From the NCBI GenBank assembly GCA_020347625.1, contig CP070735.1, positions 2,628,902 to 2,691,010 on the forward strand: a stretch of 62,109 nt of DNA, read 5' to 3'. This DNA comes from Deltaproteobacteria bacterium. GTDB lineage: Bacteria; Desulfobacterota; Syntrophobacteria; BM002. A program made the translations under genes and the position numbers. The notes under the pieces were generated by a model, which ran no database searches, was not told the origin of the DNA, and saw only the letters and a program-made list of their open reading frames with translations. Numbering within the stretch: the stretch's first letter is position 1; each line of letters starts with the position of its first letter. Below are positions 1,895-11,684 of the stretch, one piece after another.

Positions 1895-1922
1895 TTGACA
1901 AACCTAAGGCTTTTTTTATACT
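1895..1922 (+). promoter_or_regulatory. sigma-70-type promoter upstream of yceD-rpmF-fabH
   Basis: TTGACA (1895-1900), 16-nt spacer, TATACT (1917-1922), about 45 nt before the yceD start. Confidence 0.45.
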
Positions 1923-1967: not shown

Positions 1968-2507
1968 TTGAAAGTTAGGGTGGATGAGCTTCCAGAGTAC
2001 GGCGGGATGATCCACTTCCACGAGACTGAATCCTGGTTTTCTTCCAGGATGAATTCTGCGGAAGATACTCGGGAAATCAGCCTGGCGCGACCCGTGAGCG
2101 TTGACCTGGAGTTCATTCCAGAAACCGAGCAGGTTAGAATTAACGGCCATCTGCAAACGGCAGTGCGCCTCGCCTGCAGCCGTTGCCTGCAAGACTATGT
2201 CTTGCAGTTGGACGAAATTATTACTTTCGTCCTTTTGCGGCCTCCGCCCGATGAGATGCCTGAAGAGATTGATCTCAGTTCTCAAGACCTGGACACTGAG
2301 TTCTACGATGGCACCACCATCGATGTGGATCTCATCGTCGCAGAACAGATCTTCCTGGCACTACCCCAAAAGCCGTTATGCCGGGAGGAGTGCCGGGGAA
2401 TCTGTGCCGGCTGCGGCGCGGACCTGAACCAAGAGCCGTGCCGATGTGAAAAGAAAGAAACAGGATCTGTTTTTGAACCTTTAAGATCCATGAAAATCGA
2501 CCAATAG
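1968..2507 (+). CDS. yceD: YceD/DUF177 family protein (23S rRNA accumulation protein)
   Basis: TTG start. C-terminal CxxC..CxxC (CREECRGICAGCG). Conserved position directly upstream of rpmF. Confidence 0.8.
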   Translation: MKVRVDELPEYGGMIHFHETESWFSSRMNSAEDTREISLARPVSVDLEFIPETEQVRINGHLQTAVRLACSRCLQDYVLQLDEIITFVLLRPPPDEMPEEIDLSSQDLDTEFYDGTTIDVDLIVAEQIFLALPQKPLCREECRGICAGCGADLNQEPCRCEKKETGSVFEPLRSMKIDQ

Positions 2508-2559
2508 TCCGTTCTTAGTCGCCTTTTGGCGGCCCATAATGGAGAAGGAGCAAGATCGG

Positions 2560-2742
2560 ATGGCTCTCCCCAAGAGACGTCACTCAAAGAGTAGAACAAG
2601 AAAGAAAAGATCGCACCATAGACTCGAGCCACCCACGCTCTCCCTGTGTTCTCAGTGCAACGAGCCCAAGTTGCCGCACCACGCCTGTCCAAGCTGTGGA
2701 ACTTATAAGGGGAGGGAGGTTATCCAGACAGAGGAGGTGTAA
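2560..2742 (+). CDS. rpmF: 50S ribosomal protein L32
   Basis: MALPKRRHSKSRTRKKRSHH N-terminus and CxxC..CxxC. GGAGAAGGAG RBS before the ATG at 2560. The ORF-track start 2539 is judged too early. Confidence 0.9.
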   Translation: MALPKRRHSKSRTRKKRSHHRLEPPTLSLCSQCNEPKLPHHACPSCGTYKGREVIQTEEV

Positions 2743-2930: not shown

Positions 2931-3914
2931 GTGAATCGCAGCGTCATCATAGGAACAGGATCAGCTGTACCCAAGAAGGTTGTCACCAACGAGGACCTGG
3001 AATCCATAGTTGACACCTCAGACGAGTGGATTCGCACACGCACCGGTATCAAACAGAGGTACATAGCTGAAGACGGTGAGACCACTTCCTCCCTGGCCAC
3101 GGTGGCGTCACTGAGGGCCCTAGAGATGGCAGGGGTGAGCCCGGAAGAGGTTGACATGATCGTGGTGGGTACCACCTCTCCCGATATGATCATGCCCAAC
3201 ACAGGCGCCTTGATACAAAAGCACCTCGGGGCAACAAAAGCTTTCGGTTTTGACGTCTATGCGGCTTGCAGCGGCTTTGTCTACGCCCTAGCGGTTGCAG
3301 ACAAATTCGTGAAGGAGAAGCCAGGCAGCAAAATACTGGCCGTCGGTGCGGAGATTCTCTCCAGCATCACAGATTGGCAGGATCGAAACACCTGTGTTCT
3401 TTTTGGTGATGCTGCAGGAGTTGTTCTGCTAGGCGGTTCGCAAGAGTCCGATCGGGGCATCCTTTCCACCCATCTGCGATCGGATGGTCGTCTTTGGGAA
3501 CTGCTGCACATTCCAGGGGGCGGATGCGTATATCCCCCCAGTGCCGAGATGGCCGAGAAGCGTGACTATTGTATACGTATGCAAGGCAATGAGGTGTTCA
3601 AACATGCTGTCCGGTCCCTCGCTGGGGTGGCCAGGGAAGCCATGGAGGAAAATCAGCTGAAGCCGGATGATATCGACCTCTTTATTCCACACCAGGCCAA
3701 CATGCGCATAATGAAGAAGGTGGCGGAAAGTTTGGAGATTCCCATTGACCGGGTTTATGTGAATATCGATCGATACGGCAACACGTCTTCAGCAAGTATT
3801 CCAGTGGCCCTTGACGAGGCCAACCGTTCTGGCCGTCTCAAGCGAGGAGACCTGGTGCTCTTGGACGCCTTTGGAGGGGGCTTCACCTGGGGAGCAGTAA
3901 TGATTCGCTGGTAG
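2931..3914 (+). CDS. fabH: 3-oxoacyl-ACP synthase III
   Basis: FabH-like over full length (AACSGF active-site Cys, HQAN, GNTSSAS). GTG start. Confidence 0.9.
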   Translation: MNRSVIIGTGSAVPKKVVTNEDLESIVDTSDEWIRTRTGIKQRYIAEDGETTSSLATVASLRALEMAGVSPEEVDMIVVGTTSPDMIMPNTGALIQKHLGATKAFGFDVYAACSGFVYALAVADKFVKEKPGSKILAVGAEILSSITDWQDRNTCVLFGDAAGVVLLGGSQESDRGILSTHLRSDGRLWELLHIPGGGCVYPPSAEMAEKRDYCIRMQGNEVFKHAVRSLAGVAREAMEENQLKPDDIDLFIPHQANMRIMKKVAESLEIPIDRVYVNIDRYGNTSSASIPVALDEANRSGRLKRGDLVLLDAFGGGFTWGAVMIRW

Positions 3915-3975
3915 AGGATTTGTTGAGTCGTTAGCTTCGCGCAGTTCAACACTTGTCTGTGAGAGGAGGGCGTCA

Positions 3976-5145
3976 GTGGACTATTTCTTGACCGAAGAAC
4001 AGCAGATGATCAAAGAGATTGCGGCCAAAATCGCTACCGAGAAAATTCGACCCATACGTGCTGAACTGGATGAGAGCGAAGACTTCCCGTGGGAGATTAT
4101 GAAAATTCTGGCGCAGTCGGACCTCTTTGGGGTCTATCTTCCAGAAGAGTACGGTGGTCTGGGTGGAGGGGTGCTTGAAAACTGCTTGGCAATCGAGGAG
4201 CTAGGCCGGGCGTGTATCGGCGTTGCCACCACTTATGCGGCCAGTGGTCTGGGAGCTTATCCTATTTTGCTCTATGGCAACGAAGAACAGAAGCAAAAAT
4301 ACCTGCCTGTGATCGCCAGCGGTGAAAAGTTGGCTGCGTTCGGGGTTACGGAAGCTGGCGCCGGCAGTGACGCGGGTGGCATTCAAACCACCGCCAAACG
4401 AGATGGAGATGACTACATTCTCAACGGCACCAAACAGTGGATCACCAATGGAGGTGAGGCTGAAATCTACACGGTCGTCGCCATTACTGACCGGAAGAAA
4501 GGTGCCAGGGGGGCAAGCGCGTTTATCGTCGAGAATGGGGACCCTGGATTTTCCTTCGGCAAGAAGGAAAAGAAGATGGGCATTCGTACTTCGGCCACCC
4601 GAGAACTGCTCTTCAACGATTGCCGTATTCCCGCAGACCGCCTCATCAGCCGTGAAGGCATGGGATTCATCGTCACCATGAAGACTTTTGACGTCTCGCG
4701 CCCCGGTATCGGTGCTTTGGCAGTGGGTCTGTGTCAGGGTGCGCTGGACATATCGGTGGAATATGCCCGCAAGCGGGTGCAGTTCGGTAAGCCCATTATC
4801 TCGTTTCAGGCCGTACAACACATGCTGGCTGACATGGCCACCGAAACAGAGGCAGCCCGTGCCCTGGTCTACGCCGCGGCGCGTTACATAGATAGTGAGG
4901 CCAAAGATATTTCCAAATTTTCCGCTATGGCGAAGCTTTTTCCCACTGATGTTGCCATGCGGGTGACCACTGATGCTGTGCAGGTGCTGGGAGGCTACGG
5001 CTATATGCGCGACTACCCGGTGGAAAAAATGATGCGAGATGCCAAAATACTCCAGATCTACGAGGGGACGAACCAGGTTCAGCGCAACATCATCGGTCAG
5101 GAGTTAAACAAAGAATACGGACGAATCAAGGAAACCTTTTTCTAG
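3976..5145 (+). CDS. acyl-CoA dehydrogenase (butyryl-CoA dehydrogenase-like)
   Basis: ACAD motifs (GVTEAGAGSD, QVLGGYGY, YEGTNQVQ). GTG start with GAGGAGGG RBS. Confidence 0.9.
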   Translation: MDYFLTEEQQMIKEIAAKIATEKIRPIRAELDESEDFPWEIMKILAQSDLFGVYLPEEYGGLGGGVLENCLAIEELGRACIGVATTYAASGLGAYPILLYGNEEQKQKYLPVIASGEKLAAFGVTEAGAGSDAGGIQTTAKRDGDDYILNGTKQWITNGGEAEIYTVVAITDRKKGARGASAFIVENGDPGFSFGKKEKKMGIRTSATRELLFNDCRIPADRLISREGMGFIVTMKTFDVSRPGIGALAVGLCQGALDISVEYARKRVQFGKPIISFQAVQHMLADMATETEAARALVYAAARYIDSEAKDISKFSAMAKLFPTDVAMRVTTDAVQVLGGYGYMRDYPVEKMMRDAKILQIYEGTNQVQRNIIGQELNKEYGRIKETFF

Positions 5146-5146
5146 G

Positions 5147-5250
5147 CGTTTAGCCTGTTATGCCGGTTAAGCCGGCTAAGCCAGTTAGATGCTTTAGACT
5201 CGTCGACTTTAACTGGCTAAACCGACAAAACTGACAGAACTGGCCAAACA
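5147..5250. repeat. heptamer-array hairpin element inside the acd-etfB gap
   Basis: GCCGGTTAAGCCGGCTAAGCCAGTTAG...TAACTGGCTAAACCGACAAAACTGACAGAACTGGCC. Confidence 0.6.
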
Positions 5251-5292
5251 CTTAAATCTATTCTAAGCACTTAATACCATTGGAGTTTCTTC

Positions 5293-6084
5293 ATGCACAT
5301 TGTTGCTTGTATTAAACAGGTGCCCGATGCCAAAGACGTCCGCATCGACCCCGAGACCTGCACACTGGTGCGCCAGGGTGTGGAGAGCATAGTCAATCCT
5401 CATGATTGGTATGCAGTGGAAGCAGCCTTGCGCTTGCGGGACGAGTACGGTGGCAAGGTAACCGTGCTGACCATGGGACCGCCACAGGCTGAAGAGGCCC
5501 TGAGAGAAACCCTCGCGCTGGGTGTTGACGAGGCCGTGCTTTTGAGCGACCGGGCCTTTGCCGGCGCAGATACCTGGGCCACCTCGCTGACTCTGGCTCG
5601 GGCTATTATAAAGCTGGGCCCGGTGGATCTTGTCATCTGCGGTAAACAGGCCATCGATGGAGACACTGCCCAGGTGGGTCCAGGACTGGCAGCGCATTTG
5701 GACCAGCCCTACACCACATATGCCCGGAGGCTTGAGTTACAGGACGGCGGGCTGTTGCTGGCTGAGCGCTTGACCGACATGGGCTACGAGGTCGTGCAAA
5801 TGCCCCTGCCGGCAGTAGTTACTGTGATTAGGGAAATTGGCGATCCCAGGATGCCGGGACTAAAGCACAAAATGCGGGCTCGAAAGCAAGAAATCCCAGT
5901 AATGGGTGCTGCTGATTTGGAGCTGAATCCCGAGGAAGTGGGGTTGCAGGGATCTTTCACCCAGGTTGTCAGGGTTTTTAGTCCACCACCCCGTTGCGAC
6001 CGGGAGATGCTTACCGGCGAACCAGAGGAACAGGCGGAGAAACTTATTAACCGATTAAAGGAAGCTAAGGTACCGGGTCTATGA
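5293..6084 (+). CDS. etfB: electron transfer flavoprotein, beta (small) subunit, bifurcating-type signature
   Basis: N-terminal VACIKQVPD and GKQAIDGDTAQVGP resemble the FixA/bifurcating Etf small subunit. Confidence 0.9.
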   Translation: MHIVACIKQVPDAKDVRIDPETCTLVRQGVESIVNPHDWYAVEAALRLRDEYGGKVTVLTMGPPQAEEALRETLALGVDEAVLLSDRAFAGADTWATSLTLARAIIKLGPVDLVICGKQAIDGDTAQVGPGLAAHLDQPYTTYARRLELQDGGLLLAERLTDMGYEVVQMPLPAVVTVIREIGDPRMPGLKHKMRARKQEIPVMGAADLELNPEEVGLQGSFTQVVRVFSPPPRCDREMLTGEPEEQAEKLINRLKEAKVPGL

Positions 6085-7271
6085 AGCCCATAGTTGACAA
6101 AGAAAAATGTACAGGTTGCGGCGACTGCGTGGAAATATGTCCCGTGGAGGCCATTGAGGTAGTGGATGAGATCGCGCAGGTGAATGATGACTGCACCCTT
6201 TGTGGTCTCTGTGTGGATGCGTGTCCCGATGAGGCTATTGATATGCCTGAGGTCATCGGCCCTGCGACAGATGACATCGAGTCGTACAAGGGAGTTTGGG
6301 TTGTGGCCGAGCACCACGGTGGCGAGGTGCATTCAGTCTCTTTTGAACTACTGGGTGCAGGCAGGAATTTGGCTGACAAGCTGGGAGTGGAGCTGGCAGC
6401 GGTAATCATCGGGGATCAGCTTCAGGAGGCTGCCGAACAGCTCATCGGCTACGGGGCCGATCGGGTTTACTTGGCGGAAGATCCAGCTCTGGCGCTCTTC
6501 AACGACGAATCTCACGCCAATGTTCTCACCGAGCTCATCGAGCAGAAGAGACCGGCGATCCTTTTGGCGGGGGCAACCGCAATGGGCCGCTCTTTTATTC
6601 CCCGGGTGGCCGTGGCAGTAGGAACTGGTCTGACGGCTGATTGTACCGAACTTGATATCGGCGAAGATGGACTCCTCTATCAAACCCGACCGGCCTTTGG
6701 TGGCAACATCATGGCCACCATCCTCTGTCCAAATCGTCGCCCGCAGATGGCAACGGTCAGGCCTATGGTAATGAGAAAGCCCGATTTCGATACTCAGCGC
6801 CAGGGAGTGGTGGAAGCTTTTGCCCCTAGCGCTAAGGCAGTTGCCTCCCGGGTGCAGGTGCTCGAGACCGTTACGCTCGCGCAGGAAACAGCTCGTTTGA
6901 CCGAGGCTGATGTGGTGGTCACGGGCGGCCGGGGATTACAAAAGGCGGAGAATTTTAAAATCATCGAAGAGGTGGCACTTCTTGTGGATGGTGCGGTTGG
7001 CGCCACCAGGAGTGTGGTGGACGAAGGGTGGATGCCTTACAGTCATCAGGTAGGTCAGACGGGCAAAACGGTTTCTCCCAAGCTTTACCTAGCTTGCGGT
7101 GTTTCTGGTGCCATCCAGCATGTTGTGGGGATGCAGGGCTCCGAGATCATTGTGGCGGTAAACAAAGATCCGGATGCGCCAATCTTCGATGTGGTCAACT
7201 ACGGTGTGGTGGCGGACCTGTTTGAATTTCTTCCTGCTTTGGTGAAGAAAATAAGAGAGCAACGAAGCTAA
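6081..7271 (+). CDS. etfA: electron transfer flavoprotein, alpha (large) subunit with N-terminal 2x[4Fe-4S] ferredoxin domain
   Basis: [12 protein letters not shown] and [12 protein letters not shown] motifs followed by an EtfA/FixB body. ATGA overlap with etfB. Confidence 0.9.
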
Positions 7272-7276
7272 TTTAT

Positions 7277-7487
7277 AAATCCGAAATTAAATTTAGGAAT
7301 TGGGGAATTAAGGAATTGAGGGATTGGACACGAATTCATTAAATTGTCTGTGCAAGCTTTTCTAATTCCTGAATCCCTTAATTCCAGAATTTCTCAATTT
7401 ATTTGGGTGTTTCGGATTTCGACCCGCCCGCCTCGCCTGAACGAGCAGGCTCGCGATGGCGGGCAGGTATTCGGATTTCGGATTTGC
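7277..7487. repeat. nested heptamer-array hairpin element (etfA-fabG gap)
   Basis: AAATCCG AAATTAA ATTTAGG AATTGGG GAATTAA GGAATTG...AATTCCT GAATCCC TTAATTC...CGGATTT. A second hairpin is CCCGCCCGCC...GGCGGGC. Confidence 0.8.
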
Positions 7488-7552
7488 TTAGAGGCGATAT
7501 TGGAAATTGTCAACTTCTCTTAATTTAATTTTTAGGCCTGCGGGGTGAAAAG

Positions 7553-8305
7553 ATGGCTGAGAACGACAAGAGGGTAGCGGTTGTTACTGGAGGGTCAAAG
7601 GGCATAGGTCGTGCAATTATCATGGCACTGGCTGAACCGGGGTTGACAGTGGTGTTTAATCACTATGATCCTCCCGATGACAAGGCCGCAGACGAGACCA
7701 TCCAAATGGCACGGGACAAAGGGTGCGAAATCGAGGGGGTTCGACTGGATGTCTCAGATTACCAGGCGGTTCAGGAGTTCATCAAAGGTGTGGTGGAGCG
7801 TCATGACCGGGTTGACATCCTGGTTAACAACGCCGGCATTACCCGGGACAACCTTCTGTCAAGACTGAAAGAGGTGGATTGGGATGCGGTACTGGCGGTG
7901 AATCTCAAAAGTGTCTTCAACTGCACCCAAGCAGTTGCCCGCTACATGATGAAGCAGCGTTACGGTCGAGTGGTGAGCATAGCATCAGTTGTGGGGGCTA
8001 TGGGTAACGCAGGCCAGGCCAACTATGCGGCATCCAAGGCGGGCATTATGGGATTCACCAAGTCGGTGGCGCGCGAATTGGCGAGCCGCAATGTGACCGT
8101 TAATGCGATCGCTCCTGGTTTTATCGAGACTGAGATGACGGCACAGCTCCCCGAGAAGGCCAAGGAGGCCTTTCTGGCCCAGATTCCACTGGGTCGTGCC
8201 GGCCAGCCTGAGGATGTTGCCCAGTTGGTGAAATTCCTAGTTTCAGAGGAGGGTTCGTACATCACGGGCCAGGTAATTCATTTGAACGGCGGAATGTATA
8301 TGTAG
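7553..8305 (+). CDS. fabG: 3-oxoacyl-ACP reductase
   Basis: SDR with TGGSKGIG, NNAG and YAASKAG. Confidence 0.9.
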   Translation: MAENDKRVAVVTGGSKGIGRAIIMALAEPGLTVVFNHYDPPDDKAADETIQMARDKGCEIEGVRLDVSDYQAVQEFIKGVVERHDRVDILVNNAGITRDNLLSRLKEVDWDAVLAVNLKSVFNCTQAVARYMMKQRYGRVVSIASVVGAMGNAGQANYAASKAGIMGFTKSVARELASRNVTVNAIAPGFIETEMTAQLPEKAKEAFLAQIPLGRAGQPEDVAQLVKFLVSEEGSYITGQVIHLNGGMYM

Positions 8306-8447
8306 GCGCCTAGCATGCTAGCCGCCCGCAGAGAGCTCGGGGCATGGGGCATAGAGGGACATGTATTTCTGTAATATACACTATGCTTCATGGTCGATGA
8401 CCAGAGAAACAACATTTTTGCCGTTCCTCAACAGGTAGGAATATACG

Positions 8448-9689
8448 ATGAAAAGACGGGTCGTAGTTACGGGTCTAGGTCTGGTGACACCATTGGCAAT
8501 CGGAGTTGAAGAGACATGGTCGGCCCTGGTGGCCGGTAAATCGGGTATTGGTCCCATAACCAAATTCGATGCCAGCGAGACGACCACTAAGATTGCCGGG
8601 GAAGTCAAAGATTTCAATCCAGAGGATTACGTCTCCCGCAAAGAGGTCAGGCGGATGGACCTGTTCACCATCTACTCCCTGGCAGGCACCCGGATGGCCG
8701 TAGAGGATGCCAAACTGGTAATCAACGGCAACAACGCCAATCGGGTTGGAGTGGTAATTGGAACCGGTCTGGGTGGTCTCGGCACCTTCGAAAAATTCCA
8801 CAAGATTCTGCTGGAGGAAGGTCCAAAAAAGGTCAGCCCTTTCTTCATTCCCATGCTAATTGCCAATATGGCACCCGGTCAGATCTCCATTGTATACGGA
8901 GCCAAGGGGCCGAATATGGCCATTGAAACGGCATGTGCTGCTGGCACTCACGCAATTGGCGATGCCTTCAAGCAGATCCAGCGCGGTGCTGCTGATGTGA
9001 TGATCACAGGCGGGGTGGAGGCAACAGTCACGCCGCTGGCGATAAGCGGTTTCAATGCCATGCGGGCCATCTCCACCCGCAATGACGCCCCGGAAAAGGC
9101 CTCCCGTCCTTTTGACCTGGACAGGGATGGCTTTGTTTTGTCTGAGGGCTGTGGCATCCTCATCCTGGAAGCGCTGGATTATGCTCTCGAGCGAGGAGCC
9201 AAGATTCATGCGGAGGTCATCGGCTACGGTCTCACTGGAGACGGCTACCACATGGCGGCTCCGGCACCCGAGGGCGAGGGCATGGCCCGTTGCATGCAAA
9301 TGGCTGTTGATGATGCTGGGATTGCGCCCGAAGAGGTAGATTACATCAACGCGCACGGTACCTCCACCGACTTGAATGACAGATTTGAAACGCAAGCGAT
9401 AAAGACTGTTTTTGGCGAGCACAGCTATAAACTTGCCGTGAGTTCCACCAAGTCCATGACCGGACACCTTCTCGGTGGGGCAGGTGGGGCGGAGACTGCT
9501 TTCACCGTTTTGGCCATACAGAGAGGGATCATCCCCCCGACCATCAATTATGAAAATCCTGATCCGGACTGTGATTTGGATTACGTGCCCAACGTCTGTC
9601 GCGAGGCAGATGTGCGAATTGCGCTTACCAATTCATTCGGTTTCGGTGGAACCAACGCTGCGCTGGTTTTACGGCGTTACGACCCCTGA
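8448..9689 (+). CDS. fabF: 3-oxoacyl-ACP synthase II
   Basis: KAS II (ACAAG active-site Cys, HGTST, GHLLGAAG, FGFGGTN). Confidence 0.92.
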
Positions 9690-9723
9690 GACAGCACCCC
9701 GTGTTCTTTTTTGGAGGCTCTAT

Positions 9724-10155
9724 ATGAAAGTGGTTATTGGTAGTGATCATGCAGGCTTTTCCATGAAAACGCACGTCAGGACCTTGCTGGAGAACATGGG
9801 ACACACTGTGGAGGATGTGGGTTGCTACAGTGAAGAATCTGTGGACTACCCAGTCTACGGCAAGGCGGTGGCAACGGGTGTTGCCAGCGGCGAATTTCCC
9901 AAGGGGATTCTCATCTGTGGCTCAGGGCAGGGTATGGCAATGATTGCCAACCGTTTTGTTGGCGTGCGGGCAGCCTTGTGCAACGATCTTTTTAGTGCTG
10001 TTCTGAGCAGGCGGCACAACGACGCCAATCTCCTGGTTATGGGGGGAAGGCTGATCGGAGCCGACTTGGCAGGGGAAATTGTTGCAACCTGGCTGAACAC
10101 AGAGTTTGATGGCGGCCGCCACCAGGGCAGGGTAGCGCAGCTGGATGAAATCTGA
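9724..10155 (+). CDS. rpiB: ribose-5-phosphate isomerase B
   Basis: MKVVIGSDHAGF..CGSGQGM. The ATG at 9724 was chosen because the ORF-track start 9475 overlaps fabF. Confidence 0.88.
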   Translation: MKVVIGSDHAGFSMKTHVRTLLENMGHTVEDVGCYSEESVDYPVYGKAVATGVASGEFPKGILICGSGQGMAMIANRFVGVRAALCNDLFSAVLSRRHNDANLLVMGGRLIGADLAGEIVATWLNTEFDGGRHQGRVAQLDEI

Positions 10156-10320: not shown

Positions 10321-10424
10321 GCATTTATCGTTGGACATTTTTATTTCTTTTGGCTATCCTCACTAACCGGCTATCCCTAGACAGGGTTCACTACGGTTGA
10401 ATTACACCAGAAGATGTTACGGAC

Positions 10425-11684
10425 ATGATAGATCTGGAGAGAATAGACCCGCAGATTGCAGAATCCATCCGGTTGGAGGAGCAAAGGCAGCTACAGAGGC
10501 TGGAACTCATTGCCTCGGAAAATTTTGCCAGTCCGGCAGTCAGGCAAGCACAGGCCAGCGTCCTGACCAACAAATATGCGGAGGGCTATCCCGGCCACCG
10601 ATATTATGGTGGCTGTGAATTTGTGGATACAGCGGAAAGTTTAGCGATTGAGCGGGCGAAAGAGTTGTTTGCTGCCGAATATGCCAACGTTCAACCGCAT
10701 TCCGGTTCACAGGCAAACATGGCAGTTTTTTTCTCGATCTTACAGCCGGGCGACACCATTATGGGTATGGACCTGCGCCATGGGGGCCATCTGACCCACG
10801 GCAGCCCCGTGAATTTTTCCGGCCGACTTTTCAGAGTGATATCCTACGGGGTAAATCGGCAGACGGAAACCATAGACATGGAGGCGCTTGAACGACTGGC
10901 TAAAGAGCAGCGACCCAAGCTGGTCATCGCCGGGGCAAGCAGCTACCCCCGGGCGATAAACTTTGCTTTTTTTCAAAGCGTCTGTGATGAGATTGGCGCC
11001 TATCTGATGGTGGATATGGCACACATTGCTGGTTTGGTGGCTGCTGGAGTCCATCCAAGTCCCATTCCACACAGCGACTTTGTGACCTCCACCACCCACA
11101 AGACCCTCAGGGGACCCAGGGGAGGTCTGATACTCGCCAGAGAGGGCCACGCCGACAAACTCAACAAGCAGATCTTTCCCGGTATACAGGGTGGACCACT
11201 CATGCACGTCATCGCTGCCAAAGCCGTGGCTTTCAAGGAGGCTCTTACTGCCGAGTTCCGCTCTTACCAAAAACAAATTGTGGTTAATGCCAAACGGCTG
11301 GCAGCGGAGTTGTTGGACAGAGGTTTTCGTCTGGTCTCCGGAGGAACCGATAATCACATACTACTCGTTGACCTGCGGGGGAAGGGACTTACCGGAGCGC
11401 AAGCCGAGGTCATTTTGGACAAGGCTTGGATCACGGTAAACAAGAACAGCATTCCATTCGATCCGGAAAAGCCTGCTGTAACAAGTGGTATCCGAGTCGG
11501 GACTCCGGCGGTGACCACGCGGGGCATGAAAGAGAATGATATGGCTGTAATAGCCAAGTTTATCCACCAGGCCCTCGAAGCTGGTGATGATGCTGCCGTG
11601 CTGGAGCAACTGAGCCGCCAGGTTGGCGATTTCTGTTCGCAGTTCCCTTTACACAAACCCGTATACGAGATGGAGGCGGCTTGA
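10425..11684 (+). CDS. glyA: serine hydroxymethyltransferase
   Basis: SHMT over full length ([19 protein letters not shown]). Confidence 0.95.

Follow-up and report, generated by a model that had tools for sequence, protein, structure and literature searches.

The solved structures nearest to the proteins described here belong to reductive, electron-bifurcating complexes (5OL2_C, 6FAH_A/B and 4KPU), among them the butyryl-CoA dehydrogenase (Bcd) of Clostridioides difficile and CarCDE, the caffeyl-CoA reductase-Etf of Acetobacterium woodii. Bcd genes adjoin those for thiolase, Hbd and Crt. The enoyl-ACP reductases FabI, FabL and FabV (SDR) and FabK (FMN TIM barrel) are each one NAD(P)H-dependent polypeptide, and in Firmicutes fabK occupies the operon place that corresponds to the one considered below. 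We found no open-access literature placing an acyl-CoA dehydrogenase (ACAD) and Etf in fatty-acid synthesis.

A derived fatty-acid synthesis operon

The window (the whole stretch of DNA analysed, 62,109 nucleotides) comes from an uncultured member of the Syntrophobacteria and carries a derived version of its core operon for type II fatty-acid synthesis. Pfam and NCBIfam assignments order its genes as yceD-rpmF-fabH-ACAD-etfB-(ferredoxin)etfA-fabG-fabF-rpiB-glyA, all on the forward strand (Table 1), and, together with tblastn, they bear out the arrangement given in the original prediction, in which plsX, fabD and acpP are missing from the cluster. When the window was searched by tblastn with PlsX from a relative and with FabD and AcpP from this genome, no remnant of the three genes was detected (best E 0.087). 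The fabH of the window occupies the position of plsX in other Syntrophobacteria, and the fabG-fabF gap is the position of acpP in Desulfobulbia-type operons. The length of that gap had been given correctly, but the statement that it is filled with repeat units did not hold: TRF at a score of 30 returned nothing, leaving only a short palindrome (8305-8326), and it is the ACAD-etfB and etfA-fabG gaps that contain hairpins made of repeats. The latter gap measures 281 nt here versus only 12-30 nt in many relatives. Hairpins of the kind found near etfBA are dispersed intergenic repeats that occur throughout the genome. GC content is even over the whole block.

The promoter-like site ahead of yceD is the strongest on the forward strand between 1400 and 11800; the sole other such site in this range (10332-10360, 9/12 matches) lies after rpiB, and a motif scan detected no terminator-like sites in the operon gaps. 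The etfB stop and etfA start overlap by 4 nt.

A search of the genome for the canonical set located fabD, fabZ, two copies of acpP and a bona fide FabV (G000:987186-988361; 542 bits against an NCBIfam equivalog cut-off of 400) outside the cluster, so that half of the refuting condition set with the original prediction, such genes being present elsewhere, applies. The claim that no enoyl-ACP reductase is visible is thus true of the cluster and not of the genome. A FabK-like gene of the genome was rejected as FabK and proved to be an ortholog of FabX, scoring 251 bits against 7E1Q. By contrast with fabD and acpP, plsX was found in none of the 22 genomes of the family, and therefore has been lost rather than displaced. 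The derived trait here is the cluster's loss of plsX, fabD and acpP.

Table 1. Features of the fatty-acid synthesis block, in window coordinates.
Feature	Position	Strand	Evidence or remark
sigma-70-like promoter, TTGACA-16-TATACT	1895..1922	+	11/12 matches; ahead of yceD
yceD, 23S rRNA accumulation protein family	1968..2507	+	PF02620, E 1.3e-27
rpmF, ribosomal protein L32	2539..2742	+	TIGR01031, 84 bits (cut-off 23)
fabH, beta-ketoacyl-ACP synthase III	2931..3914	+	TIGR00747, 414 bits (cut-off 292)
ACAD, Bcd-like acyl-CoA dehydrogenase family flavoenzyme	3976..5145	+	three ACAD domains; 5OL2_C, 425 bits
imperfect hairpin, ACAD-etfB gap	5143..5254		short repeat units, period about 9
etfB, bifurcating type	5293..6084	+	KQVPD and DGDTAQVGP motifs; 6FAH_B, 257 bits
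etfA with N-terminal 2x[4Fe-4S] ferredoxin domain	6081..7271	+	6FAH_A, 396 bits; ferredoxin domain about 6081-6275
44-nt-arm hairpin, 8/16-nt repeat units	7285..7404		inside etfA-fabG gap
fabG, 3-oxoacyl-ACP reductase	7553..8305	+	TIGR01830, 337 bits (cut-off 298)
fabG-fabF gap, 142 nt	8306..8447		no acpP remnant
fabF, beta-ketoacyl-ACP synthase II	8448..9689	+	TIGR03150, 648 bits (cut-off 494)
rpiB, start approximate	9724..10155	+	Pfam domain from residue 86 of ORF 9475-10155
glyA, conserved end of syntenic block	10425..11684	+	Pfam/NCBIfam

A bifurcating-type Etf and a distinct dehydrogenase subfamily

Judged by sequence, the Etf belongs to the electron-bifurcating type (group 2, CarDE/Bcd-Etf), with CarDE (6FAH) closest. 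The motifs that had been quoted for EtfB are present, and DGDTAQVGP can be aligned with two bifurcating EtfBs, 6FAH_B and 4KPU_B. We take this motif to be the second-FAD/NADH site sequence that marks the bifurcating Etf group, where canonical Etfs have an AMP-site sequence instead. EtfB scored higher against bifurcating Etfs (257 bits for 6FAH_B, 240 for 4KPU_B, then 219, 214 and 213) than against human EtfB (105 bits), as did EtfA (396-288 bits versus 171 for human EtfA), which supports the bifurcating assignment proposed originally. EtfA aligns with CarE (6FAH_A) over residues 5-391, and its CarE-like ferredoxin domain, also as predicted, comprises a Pfam Fer4 match at residues 3-55 with two CxxCxxCxxxCP motifs aligned with those of CarE.

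The ACAD has the N-terminal, middle and C-terminal domains of its family and the catalytic glutamate in a YEGT motif (Glu363, invariant in 131/131 subfamily members). C. difficile Bcd is its top-scoring solved relative; its best NCBIfam match is AcrC (448 bits, below the equivalog cut-off of 640), and it scores 386 bits against the CyhCrbnylCoADH (cyclohexane-1-carbonyl-CoA dehydrogenase) model, below the cut-off of 650. The operon ACADs form a subfamily of their own, set apart from Bcd-like relatives by 14 positions with a conservation of at least 95%. These positions include only one gained arginine, and we saw no new basic patch hinting at ACP docking. The positions presumably forming the pocket base (MCAD Q95 and E99, human sequence numbering) carry small residues in operon ACADs and the Bcd-like group alike, so that neither comparison discriminates between ACP and CoA substrates.

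Conservation of the linkage and distribution of enoyl reductases

With the window proteins as queries, the arrangement yceD-rpmF-(plsX/fabH)-ACAD-etfB-fdEtfA-fabG-(acpP)-fabF-rpiB-glyA was recovered in all six Syntrophobacteria families sampled and in Desulfobulbia records. Outside the phylum, the linkage was seen in Nitrospirota (ACAD-etfB-etfA-fabD) and in one Dehalococcoidaceae (Dehalococcoidia) record. Of the 151 genomes surveyed in the phylum, each at least 90% complete, 70 have an ACAD ortholog (65-79% identity, one per genome), in every case within the fab operon; about half of the phylum thus keeps a Bcd-like ACAD in its core fatty-acid synthesis operon. Etf genes adjoin the ACAD in 42 of these 70 genomes, as they do in the window's lineage, whereas in the other 28 the ACAD stands without them between plsX/fabH and fabD or fabG. 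Across 120 distant loci no protein of the block is better conserved than the ACAD, whose median identity is 73%, compared with 65% for GlyA, 64% for FabF and 58% for AcpP. It is a long-standing, ancestral member of the operon and not, as the original prediction had it, an insertion.

Clear FabI and the operon ACAD are nearly exclusive: FabI was detected in 1/70 genomes with the ACAD versus 21/81 without it, in counts that ignore phylogeny. Within the class, many genomes that are 95-99% complete yielded no FabV, FabI, FabK or FabL, and the cultured isolate Desulfoferrobacter suflitae matched none of the four. Our first census classification demanded an adjoining Etf gene and gave no contrast in genomes lacking a reductase (13/38 versus 32/113); using the ACAD as query added 32 further genomes with a fab-operon ACAD, after which 28/70 carriers and 17/81 non-carriers had no FabI, FabI-like, FabK-like or FabV match, a contrast that is suggestive only. 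That 17 non-carriers also lack a detected reductase indicates that the reductase models are incomplete. FabI or FabK-like genes are present in some carriers, and two families carrying the module contain FabI-like SDRs that score about 150 bits. FabK was rejected as a clean marker, NMO-family paralogs being common in the phylum and the curated cut-off being passed by four genomes only.

Proposed function, alternatives and known systems

We propose that the operon ACAD, depending on its Etf, serves as an enoyl-thioester reductase in fatty-acid synthesis and that the pair possibly reduces ferredoxin, a reading drawn from sequence comparison that we consider about evenly poised between right and wrong. 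ACAD, EtfB and EtfA would most likely assemble into a complex resembling CarCDE and Bcd-EtfAB, with the trans-2-enoyl thioester of each elongation cycle as its substrate for reduction. NADH would deliver electrons to the FAD of EtfB; the first electron would pass through the FAD of EtfA and that of ACAD to the enoyl substrate, and the second, low-potential electron would reach ferredoxin by way of the two [4Fe-4S] clusters in the N-terminal domain of EtfA. We infer the reductive direction, the use of enoyl-ACP over enoyl-CoA and the coupling to ferredoxin. The etfB/etfA overlap, the single strong promoter-like site and the gaps without terminator-like sites may be counted in favour of this reading, while the FabV of the same genome, a CoA-dependent Bcd as best-scoring solved relative and the subfamily positions with no basic patch speak against it. 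Because of this FabV, the missing-reductase argument of the original prediction fails for this genome and holds for many relatives; the link it drew between ACAD/Etf and enoyl reduction in fatty-acid synthesis is nevertheless favoured by the wider comparative evidence. Beside the horizontally acquired FabV of this genus, the complex could be one of a pair of enoyl reductases, or the member of the pair that is used when there is a gain in reducing ferredoxin. More tentatively, and with rather less confidence than doubt, operon ACAD and Etf may constitute a fifth, non-homologous and electron-bifurcating class of enoyl-ACP reductase, in which 2 NADH are oxidised per elongation cycle and reduced ferredoxin is returned.

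The module could instead be an ordinary Bcd/EtfAB that converts short-chain acyl-CoA (crotonyl-CoA to butyryl-CoA, or back) and is only co-located or co-regulated with the fab genes, for instance to supply primers in acyl-CoA form or to keep NADH and ferredoxin balanced as cells grow. This seems unlikely to us, yet it deserves serious weight. It fits the Bcd and AcrC matches of the ACAD, the lack of an ACP-specific surface signal in the subfamily positions, the FabV of this genome and the FabI or FabK-like genes of some carriers, and the single paper we found that mentions genes of this kind reads them as Bcd/EtfAB (PMC6349859). Set against it, the operon has no thiolase, Hbd or Crt, all sizeable genes of the block being accounted for; the ortholog lies in the fab operon in every carrier of the phylum and in other phyla too; the ACAD is better conserved than FabF and AcpP; and clear FabI is nearly excluded. 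Butyrate fermentation is not known from the Syntrophobacter and Desulfobulbus relatives.

An oxidative acyl-thioester dehydrogenase within lipid synthesis, possibly a FabX-like "backtracking" enzyme in an anaerobic route to unsaturated fatty acids that passes its electrons to NAD+ by confurcation, is in our estimate quite improbable. Dehydrogenation is the default activity of ACADs, several carriers have no FabX-like gene, and Helicobacter pylori FabX provides a precedent, in that a dehydrogenase step can be part of FAS II (PMC8626469). This genome, however, already has its FabX ortholog, the isomerase function cannot be given to an ACAD, the missing reductase of many carriers would stay unexplained, and the nearest characterised complexes work reductively. 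The idea, also raised originally, that a module for beta-oxidation or syntrophy arrived in the operon only recently and took the place of plsX, fabD and acpP is hardly credible and is already contradicted by synteny: the hairpins flanking etfBA could pass for scars and the gene order is unlike the canonical operon, but the same block is found class-wide and in 70 of the 151 genomes, its GC is even, the hairpins are of the genome-wide kind, and plsX was lost, not displaced.

The enoyl-thioester reductase reading suggests a possibly energy-recovering, undescribed way to perform the last reduction of each elongation cycle. If it is right, many strict anaerobes, including half of the Desulfobacterota sampled, use an enoyl reductase annotated as "acyl-CoA dehydrogenase," and their metabolic models wrongly include a beta-oxidation or butyrate step and show a gap in lipid synthesis that is not real. 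A further reductase class would be blind to FabI- and FabK-directed inhibitors. If the enzyme also bifurcates, lipid synthesis would give energy or low-potential reductant back to strict anaerobes, altering what biomass formation costs syntrophs and sulfate reducers that are starved of energy, and the source of lipid hydrogen, a quantity used in isotope geochemistry, would change as well.

Among known systems, CarCDE shares with the window the combination of ACAD, EtfB and an EtfA with N-terminal 2x[4Fe-4S] domain, giving the full-length EtfA alignment (396 bits) and the best EtfB match. CarC itself, however, is only the 21st-best match of the ACAD (314 bits), caffeyl-CoA cannot be the substrate here, and a FAS II operon replaces the phenylacrylate respiration cluster. 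Bcd-Etf systems contain the best solved relatives of the ACAD (425 and 392 bits), and the catalytic glutamate, FAD-binding domains and bifurcating-type EtfB motifs are retained; their Etfs lack the ferredoxin domain, and the operon ACADs stand apart from Bcd-like relatives at the 14 subfamily positions. MbtN acyl-ACP dehydrogenase (78 bits) and the prolyl-carrier-protein dehydrogenases (4IRN, 203 bits) demonstrate that the ACAD fold can use carrier-protein thioesters, but they are distant from the window ACAD and oxidative, and to our knowledge enzymes of this type do not use bifurcating Etfs. With FabI, FabL, FabV and FabK the operon ACAD/Etf shares the proposed reaction, and with clear FabI it is nearly exclusive, but it is not homologous to any of them: in place of a single polypeptide there would be three subunits with three FADs and two Fe-S clusters, and reduced ferredoxin would be a possible second product.

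Organization and conservation of the fab operon

Genes in the window were called by listing open reading frames and scanning them against Pfam and NCBIfam. The genome to which the window belongs, G000, is an incomplete metagenome-assembled genome of 3.22 Mb (completeness 87.5%, GC 0.50) assembled as ~270 pieces with stretches of N between them, and the window is one whole contig. The calls include neither genes nor remnants of plsX, fabD, or acpP within the window, and therefore bear out the gene order, the motifs, and the 142-nt fabG-fabF gap of the original prediction. The etfB and etfA reading frames share 4 nt, a single strong sigma-70-like site lies upstream of yceD, and no terminator-like site was found in the intergenic gaps of the operon. 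The repeat units lie mainly in the ACAD-etfB and etfA-fabG gaps and not, as previously stated, in the fabG-fabF gap; they form hairpins that might influence transcript stability or how strongly the operon segments are expressed relative to each other. In many relatives these two gaps measure merely 0–30 nt.

Features of the fab operon in the window and related genes elsewhere in G000 (positions with the prefix G000:C1 lie outside the window)
Feature	Position	Strand	Basis or remark
sigma-70-like site	1895-1922		upstream of yceD
yceD	1968-2507	+	ORF, Pfam/NCBIfam
rpmF	2539-2742	+	ORF, Pfam/NCBIfam
fabH	2931-3914	+	above curated NCBIfam cut-off
acyl-CoA dehydrogenase (ACAD), three-domain	3976-5145	+	ORF, Pfam/NCBIfam
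hairpin, ACAD-etfB gap	5143-5254		built of short units with periods of ~8-9 and 16
etfB	5293-6084	+	ORF, Pfam/NCBIfam
etfA, N-terminal 2x[4Fe-4S] domain	6081-7271	+	ORF, Pfam/NCBIfam
hairpin, etfA-fabG gap	7285-7404		built of short units with periods of ~8-9 and 16
fabG	7553-8305	+	above curated NCBIfam cut-off
fabF	8448-9689	+	above curated NCBIfam cut-off
rpiB	between fabF and glyA	+	ORF, Pfam/NCBIfam
glyA	10425-11684	+	ORF, Pfam/NCBIfam
fabV	G000:C1:987186-988361	+	NF043048, 542 bits (equivalog cut-off 400)
TetR-family regulator (353 aa) with acpP directly behind it	G000:C1:1247064-1248514	+	acpP is one of two stand-alone copies
YihG-type lysophosphatidic acid acyltransferase	G000:C1:3175321-3176181	-	next after fabX ortholog
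fabX ortholog (NMO family)	G000:C1:3176373-3177470	-

Of the 41 genomes of the class Syntrophobacteria, 40 encode an EtfA ortholog of at least 57% identity, in every case within the block yceD-rpmF-X-ACAD-etfB-etfA-fabG-fabF-rpiB-glyA. Slot X is occupied by fabH in the family of the window and by plsX in most others of the class; in a few genomes it is empty, and one family has acpP between fabG and fabF. Linkage extends to Desulfobulbia-type records (rpmF-plsX-fabH-ACAD-etfB-etfA-fabG-acpP-fabF), Nitrospirota records (ACAD-etfB-etfA-fabD), and a Dehalococcoidaceae record (ACAD-etfB-etfA-yceD-rpmF-fabD-fabG). Given this constant block order throughout the class and the linkage in further groups, the description of the ACAD-Etf genes as inserted into the operon does not hold.

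We surveyed 151 genomes spread evenly over the phylum, each at least 90% complete; these are related to one another and are not independent samples. Searching with EtfA and inspecting the surrounding genes yielded 38 Etf-containing operons, while searching with ACAD identified orthologs, 65–79% identical and single in each genome, in 70 genomes, with the ortholog located in the fab operon in all 70. The etfBA genes adjoin ACAD in 42 of these carriers; in the other 28, ACAD stands alone with plsX or fabH on one side and fabD or fabG on the other, and the Etf genes lie elsewhere. Such Etf-less operons (loci L188–L223, e.g., L189, L191, and L197) mostly read plsX-ACAD-fabD-fabG-acpP-fabF, without fabH. 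Four small genomes of 1.5–1.8 Mb (L193, L201, L208, and L216) carry a ~60% identical ACAD-etfB-etfA outside the fab operon, perhaps the same enzyme without the operon linkage; these ACADs have most subfamily-specific residues in common with the operon ACADs. Across 120 distant loci, conservation within the block is highest for ACAD (median identity 73%, versus 65% for GlyA, 64% for FabF, 58% for AcpP, and 55% for RpmF).

Fatty-acid synthesis genes and enoyl reductases elsewhere

Outside the window, G000 encodes fabD (300 bits, above cut-off), fabZ, and two stand-alone copies of acpP. The TetR-family regulator preceding one acpP weakly resembles fatty-acid regulators of the FadR/FasR type (71 and 64 bits, below cut-offs). 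No plsX was found in G000 or its 21 family relatives, several of which reach 93–96% completeness, whereas most other families of the class possess it; the gene has therefore genuinely been lost throughout the family.

Among eight SDR matches in G000, neither FabI nor FabL is represented. The sole FabK-like gene, of the NMO family, was rejected as FabK: it is orthologous to FabX, the dehydrogenase/isomerase of Helicobacter pylori (251 bits to 7E1Q versus 68–90 to solved FabKs), and its C-terminal cysteines align with cysteines of 7E1Q. Together with the adjacent acyltransferase, it suggests FabX-type anaerobic unsaturated fatty-acid synthesis. G000 also has FabV, on a 3.6-kb contig. FabV occurs in 13 of the 41 class genomes, all from the window's genus or a single adjacent one, and in two of the 151 phylum genomes, both of the window's genus, so that its acquisition in G000 looks recent and, as we read its distribution, horizontal, on top of an older system.

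FabI-level and FabK-level scores were each obtained in two of the 41 class genomes, the remaining FabK matches being FabX-like, and FabL was found in none, the top match being mostly the operon's own FabG. FabI is present on an uncultured Syntrophobacter chromosome. None of the four reductases was found in many 95–99% complete class genomes or in the cultured Desulfoferrobacter suflitae DRH4. Over the 151 phylum genomes, clear FabI was detected in 1/70 ACAD carriers versus 21/81 other genomes (Fisher p ~1e-5, relatedness ignored), and FabI, FabI-like, FabK-like, and FabV proteins all went unseen in 28/70 carriers versus 17/81 others. These 17 non-carriers indicate that the search models miss some reductases; furthermore, FabK-like paralogs are widespread in the sample, and FabI-like SDRs (~150 bits) occur in two carrier families. 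The phyletic case for ACAD replacing an enoyl reductase is therefore suggestive, not decisive.

Candidate function of the ACAD-Etf module

The top solved relatives of ACAD are Bcd subunits of bifurcating complexes (Clostridioides difficile 5OL2_C, 425 bits; A. fermentans 4L1F, 392 bits), and the catalytic YEGT glutamate is retained; ACAD scored below every NCBIfam equivalog cut-off (AcrC 448 bits, cut-off 640). EtfB retains DGDTAQVGP and scored 213–257 bits against five bifurcating Etfs versus 105 bits against human EtfB. By sequence, ACAD and Etf form a CarCDE/Bcd-EtfAB-type machine, and we infer that the Etf would bifurcate electrons.

In the explanation with the most support, to which we give about an even chance, ACAD serves fatty-acid synthesis: Etf, with NADH as its probable donor and ferredoxin as the probable second acceptor, would pass electrons to ACAD, which would reduce the enoyl thioester in every elongation cycle. 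The full form of this proposal, in which a putative enoyl-ACP substrate and true bifurcation apply jointly, is less likely than not. The main rival, an ordinary short-chain Bcd/EtfAB merely co-located with fab genes, draws on the closeness of ACAD to C. difficile Bcd, the lack of an ACP-docking signal among 14 subfamily-specific ACAD positions, and the existence of FabV in G000; we nevertheless judge it unlikely, as the operon linkage is absolute, the conservation of ACAD extreme, and the block free of other butyrate-pathway genes. An oxidative, FabX-like role of ACAD fits poorly and is improbable, and a recently landed beta-oxidation module, also a poor fit, is highly improbable.

A full-text search of open-access literature found no paper tying ACAD/Etf to fatty-acid synthesis; the nearest, on Margulisbacteria and relatives, interpreted such genes as Bcd/EtfAB (PMC6349859). 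New here are the derived operon form, with fabH occupying the plsX slot and fabD and acpP dispersed, the loss of plsX across a whole family, and the occurrence of the module alongside an acquired FabV and a FabX ortholog in one genome. Among characterized systems, the likeness to caffeyl-CoA reductase extends to the ferredoxin domain, with EtfA aligning over its full length to CarE (6FAH_A, 396 bits).
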